Source of the DNA: Candidatus Gastranaerophilales bacterium
GTDB taxonomy: Bacteria; Cyanobacteriota; Vampirovibrionia; Gastranaerophilales; Gastranaerophilaceae
Length of the DNA: 64,000 bases
Reading direction: 5' to 3'
Assembly: GCA_900769355.1 (NCBI GenBank)
Contig: CAAGGG010000068.1
Coordinates: 7,478-71,477, forward strand
A program made the position numbers and the translations under genes. Positions 1 to 62,727 of this stretch are shown piece by piece (within the stretch, counting starts at the first letter, position 1; each line of letters starts with the position of its first letter). A model generated the notes under the pieces. It searched no databases. It saw only the letters and a program-made list of their open reading frames with translations, and was not told the DNA's origin.

Positions 1-2062
1 CGTTATTTACGTAAACTTCATTTCGTTGTAATTCTGTTCCTTGAAAAGCTTCATAAGCAGTTTTGTATTCATCATTCGGTTTGTAGCCTTCTGCAGCATA
101 GCGAGCATTGATTTTTGCAAGAATAACTTTATCTGTAATTCCGGCATTGGCTTGTGACATAAGAGTTTCGTCTGTATCAGGGATAAAGCCCAATGTTTTG
201 TCATTTGCGGCTTTATCTAAATCAGCTTTGATTGCATTTGCAATTTCAGTTGATTTTTTATTTCCATCTACAGAATTTCCATTTTTGTCAAAATAGTAGG
301 TTTCTCCATCAACAGTAACAGATGTTGAACCGTCTTTTAAATATGTTTTTGTTCCATGACCGGCATCGTTAGCGTCACTTGCTTTAACATAATTATTTCT
401 TAAAATTGTTCTGTCGTCAAATTCTCCGGCTTTTTTACCTCCGGATAGTGTATATTGGTTGCCATGCCAATCGCTAACATTGTATCTGCCATGTTTGTCA
501 CCTTTACGTTGCCCTTCAACGTAATATGCTGTCCCGTTTTTTACAATTCTTTTTTTGCCTGCTCTAACATTTGCGATGTCAGCTCCAACATAGTTGAGTT
601 TTAGGTCTACTCCTTTGCCTCCGTTTGCAAACACATGGATTTTACCTTTGCTGTCTTTTACAATTTTTCTGTTGTAAGCAGCATTTCCTACAACTGTATA
701 TTTTTTACCGTCTTTGGTCCAAGTTTTTCCGGCATCTTTACGGTTTTGTAATCCTAATGCTTTAAGTTGCGCATTTTCAGCTTTTCTTCTAGCTTCTGCT
801 TCTGCACGTTTTTGAGCATCTCTTGCATATTCTGCTTTTGCTTCTTCTGATGTTTTTCTGTTTTGAAGAGCTTTGTGATCTGCATCTACTTCTCTTGGGA
901 TTTTAATAGTGTCGCCAACATTGAAGTATTTTTTACCATTTAAAAGCTCTTTATTTGCATTAATAATATCTTCTTTTTTACAGCCGAATTTTTTTGCAAG
1001 AACATCAATGCTTTCACCATTTTGAACAACAACACCAGTTGTGTTACCTTGTCCATCATAAGCAACTTCGTATTGCTTACCGTCTACAACTTTGCCCTGT
1101 GCAAGTCTTTGTCCATTAGTATTATATTTAGTTAAAACTTCTGTTTTGTTATCTGGATTATTGATTGTTTCAATCATTCCATCTTCGGTGTAGACTTGAT
1201 GAGTTGACTTGTTACCTTCTGTAATTGTAATTTCTTGCGGTTTCCCATTTAATAAAACAGTTACAGTTCTTTTATCTGCTTCTTGGGTAGTTTCTGTTAC
1301 ACTTCCGTTTTCGTTGTACACATAAGAAGATTCGGCTTTGCCGCCGTTACCTTTGTCAATAACTTTTTTTGTGATTCTTGGTTTGCCGTCAATATAGTCA
1401 AAAGTTGAAATTGTAGCACCTTCTGTTACTGTAGATGTTGCTTCTTTGCCATCTTTATAATCAATAACAGTTGTTTTTGTTCCATTAGCTAGGGTTATTG
1501 TTTTTTGTTGAGGTTGGTTGTCGGCAAAAGTTGTTACTTCAGAATCTCCATTTTGTTGTGTGATAGATTCTTTGGTCAATGCTTTGTTTTCATCATAGAA
1601 TTTTGTTGTAACAGCTTGAGATTGCGAATCTGTAGTTGCAATTTGAGAAGTTTTGTCTGGATTTATTGTTTCTTGAGAACCATCTTTGTAAGTGATTAGG
1701 ATAGTTTTTTGTCCATTTTCTTCCAAAACTTGCGATTTTTCGATATTTTCACTGCCTTGAACAAGTTGGTTAACGAATTGGAAAACTTCTTTTTTGTCAA
1801 TGTCTTTTAAGTTATTTTGCTTAAGAAAATTTCCAGCTTCGCGTTTTGACAGTTTTTCATTTCCGGCAGCTGTTTCAAGTTGTTGTGAAAATTTTTGCAT
1901 TTCATCTGCATCAAGAACCCCGTTTTTATCTTTGTCAACCATGTCAAAGATAGCTTGCTGTTGTGCGGATTTAAGCTGATCTCGTTTAATACCGCCTTTG
2001 AAACTTGCGGTATTTACTAAGCCTGCGTTATGTCTACCTTTTCCTAGTTGAATTTCTGTCAT
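1..2062 (-). CDS. Large surface/secreted protein, partial (C-terminus lies beyond the window start). It has an N-terminal EF-hand-like Ca-binding loop, a LysM domain and C-terminal YYxxG-type repeats.
   Basis: Hand translation of the minus strand from ATG at 2062 (SD aaaagga upstream) is open to position 1. It is absent from the ORF track, presumably because it is edge-truncated. The EF-hand loop is DKDKNGVLDADE; the LysM-like segment is VVVQNGESIDVLAKKFGCKKEDIINANKELLNGKKYFNVGDTIKIP. Confidence 0.6.
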   Translation of the reverse strand, partial: MTEIQLGKGRHNAGLVNTASFKGGIKRDQLKSAQQQAIFDMVDKDKNGVLDADEMQKFSQQLETAAGNEKLSKREAGNFLKQNNLKDIDKKEVFQFVNQLVQGSENIEKSQVLEENGQKTILITYKDGSQETINPDKTSQIATTDSQSQAVTTKFYDENKALTKESITQQNGDSEVTTFADNQPQQKTITLANGTKTTVIDYKDGKEATSTVTEGATISTFDYIDGKPRITKKVIDKGNGGKAESSYVYNENGSVTETTQEADKRTVTVLLNGKPQEITITEGNKSTHQVYTEDGMIETINNPDNKTEVLTKYNTNGQRLAQGKVVDGKQYEVAYDGQGNTTGVVVQNGESIDVLAKKFGCKKEDIINANKELLNGKKYFNVGDTIKIPREVDADHKALQNRKTSEEAKAEYARDAQKRAEAEARRKAENAQLKALGLQNRKDAGKTWTKDGKKYTVVGNAAYNRKIVKDSKGKIHVFANGGKGVDLKLNYVGADIANVRAGKKRIVKNGTAYYVEGQRKGDKHGRYNVSDWHGNQYTLSGGKKAGEFDDRTILRNNYVKASDANDAGHGTKTYLKDGSTSVTVDGETYYFDKNGNSVDGNKKSTEIANAIKADLDKAANDKTLGFIPDTDETLMSQANAGITDKVILAKINARYAAEGYKPNDEYKTAYEAFQGTELQRNEVYVNN

Positions 2063-2106
2063 GAAAAATTCCTTTTTACTTACTTAAGTAATATAAATAA
2101 CGGCTC

Positions 2107-2115
2107 GGGGGGGGG
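2107..2115. repeat. G9 homopolymeric tract (C9 on the coding strand of the downstream minus gene), followed by CAATC
   Basis: Read directly from the sequence. It lies 45-55 nt upstream of the ATG at 2062, inside a putative TTGCCC-17-TATATT promoter spacer. Confidence 0.8.
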
Positions 2116-2308
2116 CAATCTTTAACTTTTTTATCTTAATATTAAGGAAAAGTTACAAAAATTTTGACAAAAACCATGAAAACATTTTATTAAAGAGGGT
2201 ATGTCAAGGTTTAATAAAGAAAATTTAAGAAATAGGTACTTGATTTTTATTTTTTACGGAGCATAATATAGATGTTGAGTGTATTTGCTCAACGTACAAA
2301 TTAAATAT

Positions 2309-2385
<77 letters not shown>

Positions 2386-2614
2386 AGTAAAAAGCAATAA
2401 GGATAAGGTTTTCACCTTATCCTTATTTTTATATTTGTTTCTTAAAAAATGTGTTTTGGGTGACTTTTGGGTGACACTATGATTTCTTAGAGTTTTTGGG
2501 GAACAAAAGCTAGTATAGAAAAAATTTAGTAAGCTTAACAATACTCTTACCAATAAAAAAAATCAGAAGTAATTTTTTTGAGGTTGTCACCCATTTTTGA
2601 TTTTGGGTGACAAA

Positions 2615-3125
2615 TTATGAGAAAAGACTCGCATTAATTTTTGCAATTTTTGAATTTGCTTTCTTAAACATATGTTGATAAATTGATTGCGTTACACTAG
2701 GGTTTGCATGTCCTAAATAACCACTTATTGAAACTATATCAACTCCGTAATAGTTCAAAATACTTGCCTGTGCGTGTCTAAATGCATGTGGGTTCATTTT
2801 TGGAATTAGTGGTAATTGCTTTTCTGCAGGCAATTTTTTATTCTGTTCTACAATGATTTTGTTATATTTATCTTGGAAATCAGCGCAATAACCGGTAATA
2901 GAATCAGGGTGCAATGCATATCCACATAACGGCAATAATTTGCGCTGGAACGAAAAAGTGTATTTGACTTAAATTGTTTCTATAAGCATAATCTGCAACT
3001 ATTATTGTAGTGTTATCTGCACCTGTTCCTTGGTGAGCTTGTAATGTTACATATTTTCTTTCCAAAAAACTAATTGGTAATACCCCTACTTTATTTGAAC
3101 CAAGTATTCCCCATTGGATAATCAC
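2615..3125 (-). pseudogene. Tyrosine recombinase (phage integrase), truncated and frameshifted
   Basis: The C-terminal catalytic region HAFRHAQASILNYYGVDIVSISGYLGHANPSVTQSIYQH (R..H..R..Y box) is in ORF 2615-2935. The upstream part (2904-3125) is in another frame. Total length is about 0.5 kb against the roughly 1.1 kb expected. Confidence 0.7.
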
Positions 3126-3159
3126 ACCATTAGTAAAAAAAATACGAAAGGAGAAATAT

Positions 3160-3762
3160 ATGAATTTTTATTATGGATTAGTAGATGAGCAAAATCACGC
3201 TTATGGTTTTGTAGAAGAAACTGACAAGCGAGTAAAACCCGGCATGATATATGTTACAGAGGCCGAATGGAGTAATTTACTCAATGAACAGTCTGCCGGT
3301 AAGCAGATTGTTTTTTATGATAACAGAGTCTTTACGGCTGAGCCTGGTTTGTATTTCATTGATACAAATGGAGTATGGCAAAAAAAAGATACTGATAAAT
3401 TTCAGAAAGAAAAACGTTTACAAGAAATTGAAACAGAACTTGCAACGGCATCTTCCGAATACGAAACCTTGCTTGAAACTCCAGTTGTATATCCAGCAAA
3501 CGGCTTTACTTATAAGCCATCATACGCAAAAGATGATTATTCTGTTTTGATTGGAAATTACGATACTTTTTCAGTTGAAACAATGCCAATTGAAGATAGT
3601 ACACACCTTGCGAGCCATACTGTAAATATGACAAAAAACGAATTGCAAGCATTGGCATTATTTTTAGCACAGAAACAAGTTGAGTATCGAACTGTTTATT
3701 CAACAAAACGTGCAACTTTATTAGCAGAAAAAGAACAGTTAGAAAAAGAATTGGAGGCATAA
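3160..3762 (+). CDS. Phage protein, possibly a tail fibre assembly/chaperone-like protein
   Basis: 200-aa ORF in the prophage remnant. The call rests on weak resemblance to Tfa-type proteins and on position relative to the lysis module. Confidence 0.35.
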   Translation: MNFYYGLVDEQNHAYGFVEETDKRVKPGMIYVTEAEWSNLLNEQSAGKQIVFYDNRVFTAEPGLYFIDTNGVWQKKDTDKFQKEKRLQEIETELATASSEYETLLETPVVYPANGFTYKPSYAKDDYSVLIGNYDTFSVETMPIEDSTHLASHTVNMTKNELQALALFLAQKQVEYRTVYSTKRATLLAEKEQLEKELEA

Positions 3763-4004
3763 TGAAAAAATTAGTTTTTATTTTAGGTCTTTTACTTATT
3801 TGCAGTAAAGCTTATTGTGCTGATATTCAGCCAAAACAGCTTATTGAAATCGAAAACTCCGGTGGGATTGCTATTGTTCAAAAACAACCGAATAATGAAT
3901 GCCAAATGCAAGTCATAAAGATTAAAAAGTCCGGAGGGTTTCTGTTGGTGCAAATTAACGGAAAGATTAAGGATTCTGATGCTTCGGTATCAAACACAAA
4001 ATAG
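3762..4004 (+). CDS. Small secreted or lipoprotein-like phage-region protein
   Basis: Has an N-terminal signal peptide (MKKLVFILGLLLICSKAYC) and is translationally coupled to the upstream gene (ATGA overlap). Confidence 0.4.
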   Translation: MKKLVFILGLLLICSKAYCADIQPKQLIEIENSGGIAIVQKQPNNECQMQVIKIKKSGGFLLVQINGKIKDSDASVSNTK

Positions 4005-4042
4005 TGAAGGTTATTTATTTTATTTGAATTGGAGATTGTAAA

Positions 4043-4558
4043 ATGGGTAGATTTTTGACTGCTCCGGCTAGGACAGAGCAATTACCGCAAAAAGGAATGT
4101 ATAAACTGGTAGATAATGAATTATACGAAGATGATGACAGGTCAATATATCTTCATTGGCGAGGTTTTGAGACAGATAATTTTACTTGGATTAATTCAAG
4201 CGATTGGGATATTAGATGTAGCCATGGACACGATATTGGTAGTAAATATCATCAAATACTGAAAGTTTGCATGTCCTATGATGAACTTATCAGTAAAGGA
4301 TATTTATACCAACATAAAGAAAAGTGGGTTTGTAAAGATATTCCTACAAAATATTTAATGGTTGTTGATGTTTCAGGACACGAAATCAACAACCTTTTTT
4401 ATAGAATGCTCAAATCTGCAGATTGTCCTGTAACTCCTAAATTTATTCAATGTTTATATAGAGCTGGGGTAGCATTCAATTTGAATTGGTTTCTAACTGG
4501 TAAAACAAAAATTGAACCTTGCATGATTTATTGTGATGTTTGGAATAAGGGGGAGTAA
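4043..4558 (+). CDS. Hypothetical protein (prophage moron position)
   Basis: 171-aa ORF between the tail and lysis genes with no recognisable motif. Confidence 0.4.
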   Translation: MGRFLTAPARTEQLPQKGMYKLVDNELYEDDDRSIYLHWRGFETDNFTWINSSDWDIRCSHGHDIGSKYHQILKVCMSYDELISKGYLYQHKEKWVCKDIPTKYLMVVDVSGHEINNLFYRMLKSADCPVTPKFIQCLYRAGVAFNLNWFLTGKTKIEPCMIYCDVWNKGE

Positions 4559-4827
4559 TGGACGAGTATTTTAAATATGGACCTCTTATAATAATGCTAC
4601 TTGGTTTTCTTTGGCAATACAGAATCTTTGTTACTCCAGAACAACTTGAAAAAAAACACCGTGAAATTTTGAGAGAGTGCCGAGATGAATTTGTATCTAT
4701 TGAAGTTTTTAAGGAATTTCAATCAGAAACAAAGGAAGATTTTAAAGAGGTAAAACAGGGTATTGCTGATTTATACAGTAATACAAATGATATTAAAGAA
4801 ATTTTGATGCGAGGGGCAAACAAATGA
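4558..4827 (+). CDS. Holin-like small membrane protein
   Basis: 89 aa with a single N-terminal TM segment (GPLIIMLLGFLWQY). It sits immediately upstream of, and overlaps, the lysozyme gene. Confidence 0.45.
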   Translation: MDEYFKYGPLIIMLLGFLWQYRIFVTPEQLEKKHREILRECRDEFVSIEVFKEFQSETKEDFKEVKQGIADLYSNTNDIKEILMRGANK

Positions 4828-5447
4828 AAACTAGTAACAATGGACTTGCTATAATTAAACATTTTGAAGGTTGTAGCTTAAAAGCATATAAACCAATCCC
4901 TGCTGAAAAAGAATACACTATTGGCTGGGGACATAAATCTTCTGACATAAAATCTGGCATGGTAATATCACAAGAATTAGCTGACAATTTGCTGATTCAA
5001 GACGTTTCTGTTGCCGAAAAATGTGTTCATAAGTTTGTTATAGTCCCACTTACGCAAAATCAATTTGATGCACTTGTTAGCTTTTGCTATAACATCGGCA
5101 GTTATGCATTTAGAGCCTCAACACTTGTCGCAATGCTGAATGCAAATAAATATATTGAAGCATCAAATCAGTTTAGCCGTTGGGTTAAAGGTGATAACGG
5201 CAAAATTTTACAAGGTTTAGTCAAAAGACGAAATATGGAAAAGGAATTATTCCTTAAAGATAGTTGTAAAAAAGCTAAAGTTACGGCTACTGTCTTAAAT
5301 ATTAGGACTGGTGCCGGAACAAATTATAAAGTTGTTGGATATTTACCGAAAAATGCAATAGTGAGCCTCACAGATGCTTCAAATGGTTTTGCGAAATTAT
5401 TAGATGGAAGAGGTTGGGTTTCTCAAAAATATTTAACTTACATGTAA
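4824..5447 (+). CDS. Phage endolysin: GH24 (T4-type) lysozyme with a C-terminal SH3b cell-wall-binding domain
   Basis: Catalytic N-terminus LAIIKHFEGCSLKAYKPIPAEKEYTIGWGH plus QFDALVSFCYNIG. The C-terminal segment ATVLNIRTGAGTNYKVVGYLPKNAIV..GWVSQKYL is SH3b-like. Confidence 0.85.
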   Translation: MKTSNNGLAIIKHFEGCSLKAYKPIPAEKEYTIGWGHKSSDIKSGMVISQELADNLLIQDVSVAEKCVHKFVIVPLTQNQFDALVSFCYNIGSYAFRASTLVAMLNANKYIEASNQFSRWVKGDNGKILQGLVKRRNMEKELFLKDSCKKAKVTATVLNIRTGAGTNYKVVGYLPKNAIVSLTDASNGFAKLLDGRGWVSQKYLTYM

Positions 5448-5510
5448 TAAAAATCTTATTATAAAACTATTGTTTTCATAATAAGCTCCTTTCTTATTTC
5501 TATGAAACAC

Positions 5511-5548
5511 AAGGTGGTTGGGTTGCAAAACTCAGCCACCTTTTTTTA
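5511..5548 (+). terminator. Rho-independent terminator after the lysozyme gene
   Basis: AGGTGG..CCACCT stem followed by a T7 run. Confidence 0.6.
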
Positions 5549-5565
5549 TTTATGTTATACTAGGA

Positions 5566-5797
5566 CTAACACAGAGTAAAAGATGCTCTCCGAAACGGAA
5601 CTTACTACATTAATAATGTAAGACTTCGGGTTAGTTCCCGACTAGGAAGGGGGTCGATATGGATAAATTCAATTTAAGTTTATTTTTAATCTTTTTGATT
5701 TTATTTATATTAAAAAACGGCTCTAAATCAAATGATTAAGAACCGTTAGACTTCGTCCAGAGCATCTGGTAGCTTCGGTAACTACCACTCTGTGTTT
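5566..5797 (+). ncRNA. Candidate structured sRNA of about 230 nt, family unrecognised
   Basis: TGnTATACT extended -10 at about 5551-5559. The 5' AACACAGAGT (5571) pairs perfectly with the 3' ACTCTGTGTT (5783) and GATGCTCT pairs with AGAGCATC. There are several internal hairpins with UUCG loops, a T-run after the closing helix and no ORF. Confidence 0.35.
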
Positions 5798-5844
5798 TTA
5801 TTATAAACGATATTTTCAAAATATTCAACCTTAATAGACAAAAA

Positions 5845-6027
5845 TTATAAAGATTTATTTCGATTTCTGAAATCGGTTAAACAATTTTCAAGAAATTCTT
5901 TCTCTTCGGGAGTAACTCTTTTATAAAAGACTACGGTTTCAGGTTTAAGTTTTACCCCTTTTTTACGTCCACCATTCCTCCACCCACCACGGGTGTTTTC
6001 AGAACCTATTATATATTCTTCTGCCAT
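5845..6027 (-). CDS. Small hypothetical protein (60 aa, basic)
   Basis: ATG at 6027 with SD AAAGGA. The product starts MAEEYIIGSENTRGGWRNGGRKKG... and no family was recognised. Confidence 0.35.
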   Translation of the reverse strand: MAEEYIIGSENTRGGWRNGGRKKGVKLKPETVVFYKRVTPEEKEFLENCLTDFRNRNKSL

Positions 6028-6640
6028 AAGTAATCCTTTCAAATTTCTTAATATTGGTAAAAATAGACTTGAAAAATATAAGAAATCGTTTAAAATGTAA
6101 ATAAAGGCAAGGGGTGTCGTTACCACCCCAAGCACCATTCTAAAGAATGGATTTGATGAGATGAACTATTGCTAGTATTAGTAATAGTTCTTTTTCGTTG
6201 ATTTCAATTAGCATTTTGTCCTCCTTTCTTCGCTAACTGAATTTTTGCCTTTATTTAATTTTCAATGTTCCTTACTCTTTAATTATACACTATTTATTGT
6301 TTTAATGCAAGCATTAAAACAATAAATAGAAGGAATTTGTTACAATGCTTAATGTTTATTTGCAAGCATTTTAACATTAAGCGTTAAGTCCTAACTAACA
6401 AAATTTCATGAAAACTATCAGAAAAAAAATATTGTGTTATAATTTTTATGGATAATATAATTAACAATAAAGATGAAAAGGAATATAAAAAAATGGGTGA
6501 CTTTTGGGTGACAATTTTATAAAAAAATACTAAAAATGGCATAATTTTATAAAAAATCACAAAAGGTCAAAAAGTCCGAAATCCTTTTTTTACAAGGTTT
6601 GCAAGAAATTATGAGAAATTACAAAAAGCGAAATTGTGAA

Positions 6641-9284: not shown

Positions 9285-9738
9285 TGAATATACATGAATA
9301 ATTCAACCGAAACAAACTATGCATCTATGCCTCTTGGCATCTTTGCATCTAAATCATTTTTTCGCAAGACTAATCTTGGCGGGGTAGGTACCCCGCCCTA
9401 CGTTGCTTCCTATAAAATAAGTATAGACAAATGAATAAAAACGGGTATAATAACACATGTGCACAGTAAAAAAGAAGGTGAGCTTTGTTACGAGAAATTT
9501 ATTTAGAAATGCTTTAGGGGGGGGCAAGCGTCTAGGATTTCGTTTAGTAGAGGGGGTTAATGATTTAGTAGCTAGCCGTCTAGCCGCCTTCACTCTCGCT
9601 GAAGTCTTAATTACCCTCGGCATTTCGATTATTGAAATAATATTATCAAAACGCCAAAGAGTTAATTTTACTCCTTGGCATTTTGATTTAAGTTATTTGC
9701 CGCAGGACGTACATTTTGGTTGTACGGGGGCAATGTAA
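9285..9738 (+). pseudogene. Scrambled remnant of a long-leader type IV pilin-like gene
   Basis: A leader fragment MNNSTETNYASMPLGIFASK.. ends in a stop at 9427. The G8-CAAGCGTCTAG motif is at 9516. A..AAFTLAEVLITLG (9585) then degenerates. Confidence 0.6.
9516..9523. repeat. G8 tract followed by CAAGCGTCTAGG
   Basis: Same motif as 14879-14899. Confidence 0.8.
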
Positions 9739-11551: not shown

Positions 11552-11670
11552 CTTTAATTCCTCATATTTACCAGTAAACCTTTTTCGTGTATAATTATAT
11601 CGTAGATAGAAAAGTTTGTAAACATGTAATTATAAATTTTAATGATTTACCCAATTAAGAAAGGAAAAGT

Positions 11671-14803: not shown

Positions 14804-14899
14804 ATGAAATTTGAGAAGTCGTTGGAGTTGTTAAAAAATGAAAGCAACCTGATTGACGAGTGGAGCGGCACGCTCCTCGGGGGGGGGGCAAGCGTCTAG
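14804..14899 (+). other. 31-codon uORF (MKFEKSLELLKNESNLIDEWSGTLLGGGASV*) reading through a G10 tract and stopping at TAG immediately after it
   Basis: SD AAGGAG lies 7 nt upstream of ATG 14804. The G10 tract at 14879-14888 encodes GGG. The +1 frame (ORF track 14860 onward) is open for 136 codons into the pilin ATG at 15268. Confidence 0.45.
14879..14888. repeat. G10 homopolymeric tract followed by CAAGCGTCTAGA
   Basis: Counted directly from the sequence. Confidence 0.85.
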
Positions 14900-50656: not shown

Positions 50657-51471
50657 TTACCAAGGATACGTAATTTTCCAGCCATCTTGCATGATTTTTG
50701 CAGCGCAAGCTGTCCCAGAAGAATTACAATTTGAATTTATTTCTGCTGTGGTATTTGAGTATAAATCGGCTCTTACAATGCCGTCTTTAAAGTCAATCCA
50801 AAATCTAAAAAGGTCTTTTCCAAAAACATTTGGAGATTTTATACCATTGATATCAACTACAACTTCTTGTTTGGGGTTAAACATTGGCGTCCAGTGTTCT
50901 CCCCACTTTGTGAGTAAGATAAAATAAGTAACGCCGTCAGGAGTTGAAAAAAAAATTCTTCCGGCTGAATAGTTTGTGTAAATTGAAGTGTCATACGTTC
51001 TTCCGTTTTTATATTTGTATGCTATATTGCTTCCTTGCCAAGGACCACTTGGTGAAGTGTCGACATTTGCGCCATTAAAATATGGTAGCCAGTAAGTGTC
51101 AAAAAATTCTTTAACCGACTTTTGGGTGGCAACTGTTTCTTCAGTAAAATTGACTACGTCGTTGTCTGCAAGTGATTTTTGCGCGATTTGTCCGAGAGCA
51201 GAATACGCTTTTTTGAGCTTGGTTACAGTGACTTGTTTTTGGTAATTCTGGATAATAGTTGGAATAGTCAATGCTGCAACAGCGCCTATGATCCCGAGGG
51301 TGATTAGAACTTCAGCCAATGTAAAAGCGGCTCGATGCAGCTTGTCACAGAGGGCTACGTGCGTAGCACCGCTTCCTAGCTTCCTAGCTGCTTCTACAAC
51401 AGACTTTGCCTCATTTTGTTGTTTTAATGAGCTCTCGGGGGGGGGGCAATCATGGAACTATTATTAATCAT
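50657..51471 (-). CDS. Type IV pilin-like gene with a C10 tract in codons 9-12. It is out of frame as sequenced (putative phase-variable, OFF).
   Basis: Promoter TTGACA-17-AATAAT (plus 51508-51536), SD GAGGAG, then ATG at 51471. The product is MINNSSMIAPPPRAH* with 10 C. With 11 C it would be in frame with ...ESSLKQQNEAKSVVEAARKLGSGATHVALCDKLHRA|AFTLAEVLITLG.. and the rest of the pilin domain (VDINGIKSPNVFGKDLF, C-terminal DGWKITY). There is no canonical internal start. Confidence 0.6.
51437..51446. repeat. G10 (C10 on the coding strand) homopolymeric tract followed by CAATC
   Basis: Counted from the sequence. Same ctc-Gn-caatc context as 2107-2115. Confidence 0.85.
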
Positions 51472-51538
51472 TCTTTTTAACTCCTCTTATTCTTAACGTA
51501 TAAATTTATTATTTACGATATTTTGTGATTTGTCAACT

Positions 51539-52453
51539 TTAATTTTGATACTGTATCTGTTGGATATCCTTTGCAATTTGATTTTTTAGTTCTTCCAGTG
51601 ATGAAAACTTTTTTTCCGGGCGTAGCATTTTTTGAAATTTTATACTCAGATTTTTGCCATAGATATCTTGGTTAAAATTCAAAATATGGACCTCTATCAA
51701 TGTCCCAACACCGTTGACAGTCGGTCGGCAGCCGTAGTTTGCAATCCCTTTGCCGAAATTTGTTTCTACAGCATAAACACCATGCGGAAGTTCGACTAAT
51801 TCTGTCGGATATTTGATGTTTGCGGTTCTAAAACCTATTGTTCGTCCGATTTGTTGGCCTTTTATAACTTCTCCGCTTATTTCAAATTTTCGCCCGAGCA
51901 TTTTGTTGACATGTTCAATTTCGCCTTTTGCTAAATAATTTCTGATACAGGTACTGCTGATTATCTCGTTGTCCAACATTTTGGGTGGAAGTTCAAAGTA
52001 TTTGTAGTTGTATTTTTCTTGATTTTCTTGTAAAAATTCGACATTCCCGGATTTTTTACAGCCAAAACAGTGATTCCAGCCTGTGGAAATAGATTTTGGG
52101 GAAAAATATTTGACAAGAACGTCTTTCAGGTACTCGTCCGCAGTCAAATTTGAAATACTCATAAAATCTAATTCATACAAATAATCAACCCCGAGTGCTT
52201 TTATTGTCTTTTCTCTTTCGGTTTTTGTCAAAATATATTCTGGTTGAATGCCTCTTAAAATGCAACAAGGGTGCTCTGCAAAAGTTATAACTGCAGATTT
52301 ATTTCCGTTTTTTCGGGCATAATTAACCGCACTTTCAATGACTGTTTTATGACCAAGATGCACTCCGTCAAAAAAGCCTAATGCCAGCGATAAATTTGGG
52401 TTATAATTAAGAGTTTTAAATATTTCCATACCATAATTATACATAAAAAACAC
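51539..52453 (-). CDS. ribF: Bifunctional riboflavin kinase / FMN adenylyltransferase
   Basis: Motifs LALGFFDGVHLGH and the C-terminal kinase motif GIANYGCRPTV...EVHILNF. Confidence 0.9.
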   Translation of the reverse strand: MFFMYNYGMEIFKTLNYNPNLSLALGFFDGVHLGHKTVIESAVNYARKNGNKSAVITFAEHPCCILRGIQPEYILTKTEREKTIKALGVDYLYELDFMSISNLTADEYLKDVLVKYFSPKSISTGWNHCFGCKKSGNVEFLQENQEKYNYKYFELPPKMLDNEIISSTCIRNYLAKGEIEHVNKMLGRKFEISGEVIKGQQIGRTIGFRTANIKYPTELVELPHGVYAVETNFGKGIANYGCRPTVNGVGTLIEVHILNFNQDIYGKNLSIKFQKMLRPEKKFSSLEELKNQIAKDIQQIQYQN

Positions 52454-61460: not shown

Positions 61461-61730
61461 ATGGGTAACAAAGACTTAGATTACTACCTCGGACTTGATT
61501 GGAGCGTGATAGAGGGCGAAGATACCGATTTTGACGGTAATCCGTACCATTATATTGAGATAAAAGAAATTCCGAGTTTTTTGTTCTGTGCTAAAACTTC
61601 TGAAAGGGCAAGAGAACGATATAAACAGCAGCTTAAATGGACTTTGCAGGTAATGTTGGAAAGCGGAGAACATATTATTGAACCTGGAGAAGAAGACGAT
61701 GAACCTGATTGGGAAAATCTTTGTCCATAA
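61461..61730 (+). CDS. Acidic hypothetical protein (89 aa)
   Basis: ORF with no recognised motifs. Confidence 0.35.
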   Translation: MGNKDLDYYLGLDWSVIEGEDTDFDGNPYHYIEIKEIPSFLFCAKTSERARERYKQQLKWTLQVMLESGEHIIEPGEEDDEPDWENLCP

Positions 61731-61791
61731 GGAAGCTAAAATGTTGAGAAAGGACGAAGTTCTGAAAAAATAAGATATTAGAAGAACCTTC

Positions 61792-61801
61792 GGGGGGGGG
61801 G
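61792..61801. repeat. G10 homopolymeric tract followed by CAACTTCGAAG
   Basis: Counted from the sequence. It sits in the 5' region of pilin gene 61900, flanked by CTTCG/CGAAG. Confidence 0.85.
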
Positions 61802-61899
61802 CAACTTCGAAGACACGTTTAACGCGAATGAGAATTCTTCAGAGCCGAAAGAATCCAGCTTATTTATTGTATAATACAATTAAATTGAAAGGAATACAC

Positions 61900-62727
61900 A
61901 TGAATAATTTAACCGAAACAAACCACGCTTCTAAGTCTCTTGGCATCTTTGCATCTAAAACAGTTTCGTGTCGGCATAGCAATGCCGACCTACAAAAGAA
62001 AGTCGCGTTTACCTTAGCCGAAGTTCTCATTACCCTCGGCATCATCGGCGTTGTTGCGGCATTGACTCTTCCAACTGTCATTAAGTATTACAAGGCAAAG
62101 GTTTTGGAAACAGCATTCAAAAAAAGTGTCACAAACCTTTATCAAGCCTATGATCTCACAAGACAACAACTTGGTACTGATGAAATATACTCATATTATA
62201 CAATATATAGCAGCCAAACAAACTCATATCCAAATATACAAGAATTTCAAACAACCTTTGAAAATAATTTAAAAGTAATTAAAAATTCTACTAATTGGTG
62301 GGACTTTTATCCAATCTATAATTATAATAAGACCAAATTAACAACAGAAAACATTGGAACGGATTACCCTAATGCAACTAAAATTTTAGCAGATGGAAGT
62401 TCTTATAACATGCATGTAAATTTCGACGGAAATCAAATCGCAGTTCATATATATATTGATACAAATGGTCCATATAAAGGTCCAAATCAATATGGACATG
62501 ATATTTTTAAATTTCAAATCAGACATGATAATAAATTATCACCTGTAAAAATGAATAAATTATATACAGAAGAAGAACTTGAAAAAGCAAACTACAAAGA
62601 ATTAGTTGGCTATCCATGTTCTGTCAAAAGTAAACAAGCGACGAATGGTGCAGGGTGTTCTTATTACGCAATGAACAATATAAATCCTGATGATAATTCT
62701 AAAAAATATTGGGAAAGTTTGCCTTAA
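61900..62727 (+). CDS. Type IV pilin-like protein with a long MNNLTET leader (paralogue of 15268-16206)
   Basis: MNNLTETNHASKSLGIFASK...KKVA|FTLAEVLITLGIIGVVAALTLPTV. C-terminal motifs IDTNGPYKGPNQYGHDIF and NNINPDD.SKKYWESLP. The 5' cassette is near-identical to 15196-15345. Confidence 0.75.
   Translation: MNNLTETNHASKSLGIFASKTVSCRHSNADLQKKVAFTLAEVLITLGIIGVVAALTLPTVIKYYKAKVLETAFKKSVTNLYQAYDLTRQQLGTDEIYSYYTIYSSQTNSYPNIQEFQTTFENNLKVIKNSTNWWDFYPIYNYNKTKLTTENIGTDYPNATKILADGSSYNMHVNFDGNQIAVHIYIDTNGPYKGPNQYGHDIFKFQIRHDNKLSPVKMNKLYTEEELEKANYKELVGYPCSVKSKQATNGAGCSYYAMNNINPDDNSKKYWESLP

Follow-up and report, generated by a model that had tools for sequence, protein, structure and literature searches.

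A length-variable C tract in the predicted promoter of a large multidomain protein gene from a gut Melainabacterium

Does a run of nine cytosines upstream of a large gene of a gut bacterium act as a switch, set by the gain or loss of a single base, and, if so, at which step of gene expression? The locus that raises this question lies near one end of a 64-kb stretch of DNA with a GC content of 35%, which was analysed at its full length and is hereafter called the window. Melainabacteria, to which the host belongs, are uncultured, non-photosynthetic relatives of cyanobacteria living in animal and human guts and, to our knowledge, almost nothing is known about their gene regulation and surface variation. 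Many ENA and Logan metagenome contigs carry neighbouring proteins identical to those of the window; judging from their sample labels, these contigs appear to come from gut metagenome studies.

The tract and the predicted promoter

The tract is located between the start of a large protein gene and a divergent tRNA-Met gene (Table 1). Along the minus strand, the elements follow one another in the order GTTAAAGATTG-CCCCCCCCC-GAGCCGTTATT-TATATT-ACTTAAGTAAGTAAAAAGGAATTTTTC-ATG. A preliminary description of this DNA had placed the C9 tract within a TTGCCC-17-TATATT arrangement, followed by AAAGGA and the ATG, and both the sequence and an independent consensus scan confirm these coordinates and this layout. 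The hexamer pair matches the consensus at 9 of 12 positions and is the only site reaching at least 9/12 on the strand of the gene within positions 2063-2230. The space available for the promoter of this gene is limited to about that interval because the adjacent block (2232-2308), which holds the promoter-like site of the tRNA, is 100% conserved with the only relative present among GTDB genomes (L001, a MAG labelled Candidatus Melainabacteria, with 87% amino-acid and 84% nucleotide identity). The predicted promoter precedes its ATG by a typical distance (27 nt), the other promoter-like sites of the window being separated from their start codons by 6-75 nt. Taken alone, the promoter resemblance of TTGCCC-17-TATATT is not beyond chance (six 9/12 promoter-like matches in 800 bp versus 2.9 +/- 1.5 in shuffles).

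Table 1. Coordinates of the tract, of its surrounding elements and of the other long tracts in the window
Feature	Position	Strand	Remarks
Homopolymer, C9 as read along the gene (G9 on +)	2107..2115	-	sequence
-35-like hexamer TTGCCC, 4/6	2113..2118	-	its final CCC doubles as the start of the tract
17-nt spacer CCCCCCGAGCCGTTATT	2112-2096	-	between TTGCCC and TATATT
-10-like hexamer TATATT, 5/6	2090..2095	-	17 nt past TTGCCC, 27 nt before ATG
Shine-Dalgarno-like AAAGGA	2070..2075	-	7 nt before ATG; aligned A/G-rich block in all orthologues
ATG of the large protein gene	2062-2060	-	ORF open to window start, 687 codons
GCCGT, part of the RCCGT motif	2100..2104	-	inside the putative spacer
Conserved block TTAAAGATTG	2116..2125	-	directly upstream of the tract; predates it according to alignments A1 and A2
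5' part (687 codons) of the 1863-aa protein gene	1..2062	-	EF-hand-like motif, LysM-like segment
tRNA-Met, divergent	2309..2385	+	own promoter-like site TTGATT-16-CATAAT at 2240-2267
Sister tract G8	9517..9524	+	5' coding part of a short pilin-like ORF; G10 in another strain
Sister tract G10	14879..14888	+	5' coding part of a pilin-like gene; G9 in another strain
Sister tract C10	51437..51446	-	leader-coding part of a DUF6613 pilin-like gene; 8, 9, 10 in other strains
Sister tract G10	61792..61801	+	head of a hypervariable pilin-like locus; 3' sequence differs between strains

Past the tract and before the ATG, each of the three reading frames runs into a stop codon (2086-2084, 2082-2080 and 2078-2076). 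Thus, only transcription, or nothing, can respond to the length of the tract. Translational phase variation of the large gene is ruled out by these stops, and the C9 tract lies outside the reading frame, i.e., it lacks the hallmark of the intragenic class that turns translation on and off. A role in the promoter of the divergent tRNA-Met gene is also unlikely, as the tract stands about 125 bp upstream of the promoter-like site of that gene.

Would a promoter of this organism be sensitive to a change of one base in its spacer? Sites matching the consensus at 11 or more of 12 positions were counted over the whole window for spacers of 13 to 21 nt, and the respective numbers are 1, 1, 1, 1, 8, 0, 0, 0 and 0. 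Upstream of genes, sites of at least 10/12 distribute as 10 with a 17-nt spacer, 2 with 16 nt and none with 18 nt. The strong promoter-like sites of this organism almost all use, therefore, a 17-nt spacer, which is the one obtained with C9; C10 gives 18 nt, so that a single added C leaves the preferred spacing. This window-wide scan points to canonical promoters of strict spacing, and the natural tract lengths bracket the optimal spacer.

The full-length product, which is read from another assembly continuing window positions 1-2062 (L037:312-5903), is 1863 aa long, and typical orthologues (about 1150-1200 aa) have precomputed LysM hits. It had been labelled a LysM/EF-hand surface protein, a label that we could not support. 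Indeed, the LysM and EF-hand segments stay below their Pfam cut-offs (19.2-20.4 bits versus 20.9, and about 21 bits versus 25-30, respectively), and no hydrophobic segment that could form an N-terminal signal peptide is visible in the 1863-aa sequence; calling the product a surface protein is a guess. Only one domain scores above its Pfam cut-off, a RamC_N-like one at the C-terminus (42.9 bits), which lies beyond the window. The last 307 aa matched no sequence in the PDB, and NCBIfam holds no family for the large protein.

Length variation and ancestry of the tract

The preliminary description had proposed to look for heterogeneity in tract length, and such heterogeneity exists between strains: C9 in the window versus C10 in two other samples. 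Over window positions 1-2912, the corresponding contigs (L036/L015, from SAMN02333965, and L038, from ERZ27229671) display zero substitutions, and the tract, with 10 bases instead of 9, is the sole internal difference, the other gap being at the junction of an insertion (2912/2916). A third assembly (L037/L016) shows no difference from the window, G9 included. Beyond this interval, the window and L015 were compared over a further 14.7 kb, where a single 48-bp patch is the only difference. This patch (11597-11644) carries 10 differences and falls between the divergent genes for an SLH-domain protein and pyruvate kinase, in their promoter region.

Other lengths come from a lineage with 99% protein identity, where one contig reads gatt-C9-gag (L043, a single-run contig) and another gttt-C12-gag (L048, at the contig end and with 3.8x coverage), both being of lower reliability and both without the G of TTG. 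The well-supported lengths are two only, 9 and 10, and their difference is possibly the result of one mutational event. The more distant L001 carries CCCCCTCCC, i.e., an interrupted tract (C5TC3) which has the same total length of 9 and keeps the 17-nt spacing, and orthologues at 69%, 61%, 52%, 47% and 34% identity have no tract. A length difference between otherwise identical or near-identical strains, as seen in contingency loci, combined with the absence of the tract in distant orthologues, argues for a young, lineage-specific and fast-mutating repeat. We regard it as very probable that this repeat is genuine and hypermutable.

The ancestry of the region was addressed with an alignment of eight orthologous upstream regions (A2). 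Their common skeleton consists of TAAAGATT(G), 11 nt, RCCGT, 4-9 nt, TTTATA(T/G)T, an A/G-rich ribosome-binding site and the ATG. The -10-like hexamer is kept, amid diverged surroundings, as TATATT in L044 and as TATAGT in L003 (69% and 52% identity, respectively), and these hexamers pair with TTCAGA at 18 nt as read from A2. Such conservation supports TATATT as a probable -10 element. The promoter hexamers proposed previously hold in part only. Indeed, L001 has TCTATT in place of TATATT and has lost the critical A at position 2, and the TTG of the -35-like hexamer, which L001 and L044 retain, is missing from L043 and L048. The invariance of CCGT in all eight aligned sequences speaks against the spacer reading as well, and suggests that an additional element may lie inside the putative spacer; RCCGT is also present in L048 and L049. 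All orthologues examined, including those with as little as 34% protein identity, have this RCCGT motif upstream of the large-protein gene; between lineages, the motif and the -10-like hexamer vary in separation by 5 nt.

Two changes distinguish the lineage of the window from this skeleton: the 11 nt of the orthologues (TTTCAGATATT) are replaced by C9GA, and 5 nt are missing between RCCGT and the -10. By this loss, the older TTG of GATTG was brought to 17 nt from the -10. Together, the replacement and the deletion suggest how a promoter controlled by a repeat may have arisen. In the comparison with L001, 27 of 28 positions agree in the block that spans the tract (TTAAAGATTG...GAGCCGT), and the neighbouring intergenic DNA has diverged.

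Distant orthologues present a consensus TATAAT followed by 4-5 pentanucleotide units upstream of the ATG. These units (TAGGA or TATGA) stand about 60-100 nt before the ATG (L044:100-135, L045:1305-1340 and L003:2900-2930). Since this TATAAT lies about 100 nt before the ATG, long leaders are possible in this gene family. A structured RNA or a known RNA family at the tract was ruled out by an Rfam E-value scan over the tract region, which returned tRNA and noise only, and by RNAalifold, which predicted no pairs on the eight orthologous upstream regions.

A DNA pattern specific for the locus had 0 matches in IMG/VR and 0 in the JGI metagenomes, and a protein-based scan of the JGI metagenomes recovered two loci only, one of them ending in the tract. 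The P0001 contig (L002) begins inside the large-protein gene and leaves its upstream region uncovered. Two contigs of P0039 (L046:1-110 and L047:130-240) have a deletion of the promoter and of the first ~50 codons, the gene beginning inside the EF-hand-like region.

A family of long tracts in the window

The C9 tract is one of five runs of at least eight G in the 64 kb (2107, 9517, 14879, 51437 and 61792), the longest other G or C run being of 6. Overlapping G8 matches amount to 12, versus 0.14 expected from dinucleotide shuffles, none of which reached 12. The long tracts are far beyond chance, and they combine a length prone to slippage (G or C of at least about 8) with over-representation, two properties of contingency loci. 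All four sister tracts vary in length between strains. Those at 9517, 14879 and 51437 lie inside reading frames whose products display a prepilin motif (AFTLAEVLITLGI), with DUF6613 in orthologues. The first is in frame at G8, the second, at G10, does not share the frame of the ATG at 14805, and the third is out of frame at C10, the in-frame state needing C8 or C11. These three tracts are classical translational contingency loci. In nearly every strain seen, the 51437 gene (window 51260-51620) is out of frame, with tract lengths of 8+AG, 9 and 10, and one strain (L032:751-760) has an in-frame deletion beginning exactly at the edge of the tract. An exact-protein look-up of 51539-52453 found no such protein on record.

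The long tracts share their flanks. On the G strand, CAA follows the tract in 5/5 cases and TC precedes it in 4/5, versus 31/498 (6%) and 39/498 (8%), respectively, for short G runs of 3-5. This TC-Gn-CAA rule is independent of the orientation of the adjacent gene, and paralogy accounts for two pairs of tracts only. All five tracts are G on the plus strand, in a stretch of steadily rising cumulative GC skew. The immediate context of the C9 tract had been said to equal that of the pilin tract at 51437, which is exact (GATTG-C9-GAG and GATTG-C10-GAG). Seen from the C strand, each of the five C runs is preceded by TTG, whatever the gene orientation. Hence, the TTG of TTGCCC comes for free, and the -35-like hexamer may be incidental. 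A promoter reading of this flank was rejected for the other four tracts, among which only 61792 gives a site (TTGCCC-18-TAATAT), weak and facing no gene.

At the 61792 locus (window 61730-61900; around 10880-11050 in L025-L034), eleven strains share a conserved sequence 5' of the tract, and at least six unrelated sequences occur 3' of it, with deletions of 1-3 nt at the tract edge. Some of these 3' sequences hold pilin-leader segments in inverted orientation, and the gene located downstream ranges from absent to 390 aa (DUF6613). More generally, several tracts mark sharp junctions between conserved and strain-specific sequence. From the flank rule, the common strand and these junctions, one could imagine a dedicated process creating or targeting G tracts, by a sequence-specific break, repair or cassette exchange, with the copy at the large-gene promoter being co-opted for regulation; we hold it to be a doubtful proposal.

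What tract length may control

We give a probability of roughly 0.55 to the reading in which a slippage-prone C tract, located in the spacer of a predicted sigma-70-type promoter, switches the expression of the 1863-aa gene. The tract would overlap the predicted -35 hexamer and fill the first part of the spacer. One C gained or lost would set the -35/-10 distance to 17 nt (C9) or 18 nt (C10), and would also alter the distance between the TTAAAGATTG block and the -10. Transcription would then rise or fall in a heritable and reversible manner, as is the case in Neisseria porA/opc. That TATATT and TTGCCC form a working promoter, and that expression follows tract length, is what we infer from the sequence. 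The promoter-spacer switch put forward in the preliminary description finds partial support (a real and length-variable repeat, a non-translational action, the only site of at least 9/12, the preference for 17 nt and a -10-like hexamer kept in orthologues), and its -35 hexamer is weakened by the fact that TTG is a general flank of the tracts.

Several other readings were weighed against this promoter switch. The tract could be hypermutable and nevertheless belong to the 5' untranslated leader of a transcript started further upstream, where its length would act on the mRNA (through RNA-polymerase slippage or stability) or have no effect. Candidate sites for such a start are an extended -10-like TGTCAAAAT at 2168-2161 and TTGAGC-16-TATATT at 2292-2265; moreover, the 2232-2308 block, which contains TTGAGC-16/18-TATATT/TATTAT, is the one entirely conserved with L001, and the remote TATAAT of distant orthologues would fit with long leaders being usual. 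These candidates, however, either match the -35 consensus poorly or lack conservation in L001, the tRNA promoter accounts equally well for the conserved block, and neither a conserved RNA fold nor an Rfam family was found over the region, so we consider a leader position unlikely. Sequencing or assembly error, to which homopolymers are prone, is the least credible source of the 9/10 difference. It may affect L048, which ends in the tract at low coverage, and the single-run L043, but the count of 10 is found in two assemblies and that of 9 in both the window and L037, and both strains with 10 share a 2.5-kb insertion and thus represent a distinct clone; an artefact is very improbable indeed.

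Could the tract be a by-product without any regulatory role, left for instance by a short conversion from the 5' end of a GATTG-Cn-GAG pilin gene and then subject to neutral length drift? The identity of its context with the pilin tract at 51437, the apparent block replacement of the eleven ancestral bases (TTTCAGATATT) by C9GA, a flank rule true of all long tracts and the coincidence of tract edges with breakpoints at other loci are all consistent with such an origin. We nonetheless judge this distinctly unlikely: TTAAAGATTG...GAGCCGT has kept 27 of 28 positions with L001 while the neighbouring intergenic DNA diverged, the total length of 9 has been kept in L001 despite the interruption, and, for a repeat placed 24-32 nt upstream of the likely start, neutrality toward the promoter is hardly possible. 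Tract length might otherwise set the spacing or phasing between a regulator site (TTAAAGATTG, RCCGT) and the core promoter, and not the -35/-10 distance seen by the sigma factor. Both TAAAGATT and RCCGT are retained upstream of orthologues with as little as 34-47% identity, and the tract sits exactly between them; these motifs have no known regulator, though, and the distance between RCCGT and the -10 varies by 5 nt among lineages, which makes regulator spacing quite improbable.

Repeats that modulate transcription from within or beside a promoter are well documented in other bacteria. The poly-C tract of the Neisseria opc promoter lies between the -35 and the -10, and changes of one base lead to graded expression. 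Similarly, Neisseria meningitidis porA has a poly-G between the -10 and the -35, and variants with 11G, 10G and 9G differ in expression (PMC3639595). The present tract resembles both by being a G/C homopolymer (about 9-13 nt there) between -35 and -10 elements, those of the window being predicted. Unlike porA and opc, which encode a porin and an adhesin, the gene studied here specifies an 1863-aa product with no evident signal peptide; its tract overlaps the -35 hexamer and its host is an uncultured gut Melainabacterium. With moderate confidence, the C9 tract may be assigned to the porA/opc type, its promoter being predicted.

Other systems come close in one respect or another. The C tract of Bordetella pertussis fim2/fim3, located upstream of the -10, sets the distance between an upstream element and the core promoter, with BvgA as activator; the present tract likewise separates conserved upstream motifs from a -10, but TTAAAGATTG and RCCGT have no known binding protein, in contrast to the BvgA site. 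Campylobacter jejuni and Helicobacter pylori possess many poly-G contingency loci, mostly in the 5' coding parts of genes for surface structures. They have in common with the window a low-GC genome and G/C tracts of 8-10 nt whose lengths vary between strains. They belong to a different phylum, and the TC-Gn-CAA flank rule and the tracts acting as breakpoints set the window apart; we know of neither in these two species. Finally, the TA repeats of hifA/hifB, the poly-A of Mycoplasma hyorhinis vlp and the poly-G of Treponema pallidum tpr genes modulate transcription from a position in or beside the promoter spacer, and a poly-G of T. pallidum TprL is reportedly the subject of a paper of its own. 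The references of PMC5084427 include the Haemophilus influenzae hifA/hifB case. All these differ from the present tract in repeat unit or position, and none belongs to a Melainabacterium.

A full-text literature search returned no report linking Melainabacteria with repeat-mediated phase variation. Five contingency loci made of G/C tracts are present in the window: four accompany pilin-like genes, and the fifth occupies the likely promoter of a giant multidomain protein. Their lengths vary among near-clonal strains of separate samples, which suggests that this lineage uses the stochastic-switch strategy of classical host-adapted pathogens. The mechanism itself is already textbook knowledge, so the gain is one of breadth and not of principle. 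What most deserves follow-up is the flank rule, together with the way in which these tracts behave as junctions, and existing metagenome reads make tract lengths cheaply countable.

On the far side of the tRNA-Met gene lies a prophage remnant, with an integrase fragment and a phage lysozyme. It occupies window positions 2615-6200, where other strains (L035, L036 and L038) carry a whole P2-like prophage. Two strains have an extra 2.5-kb segment bearing an integrase, inserted at 2912/2916. The P2-like prophage contains several Gp53-like_C tail-fibre tip cassettes, on both strands, together with a tyrosine recombinase, in a shufflon-like arrangement.
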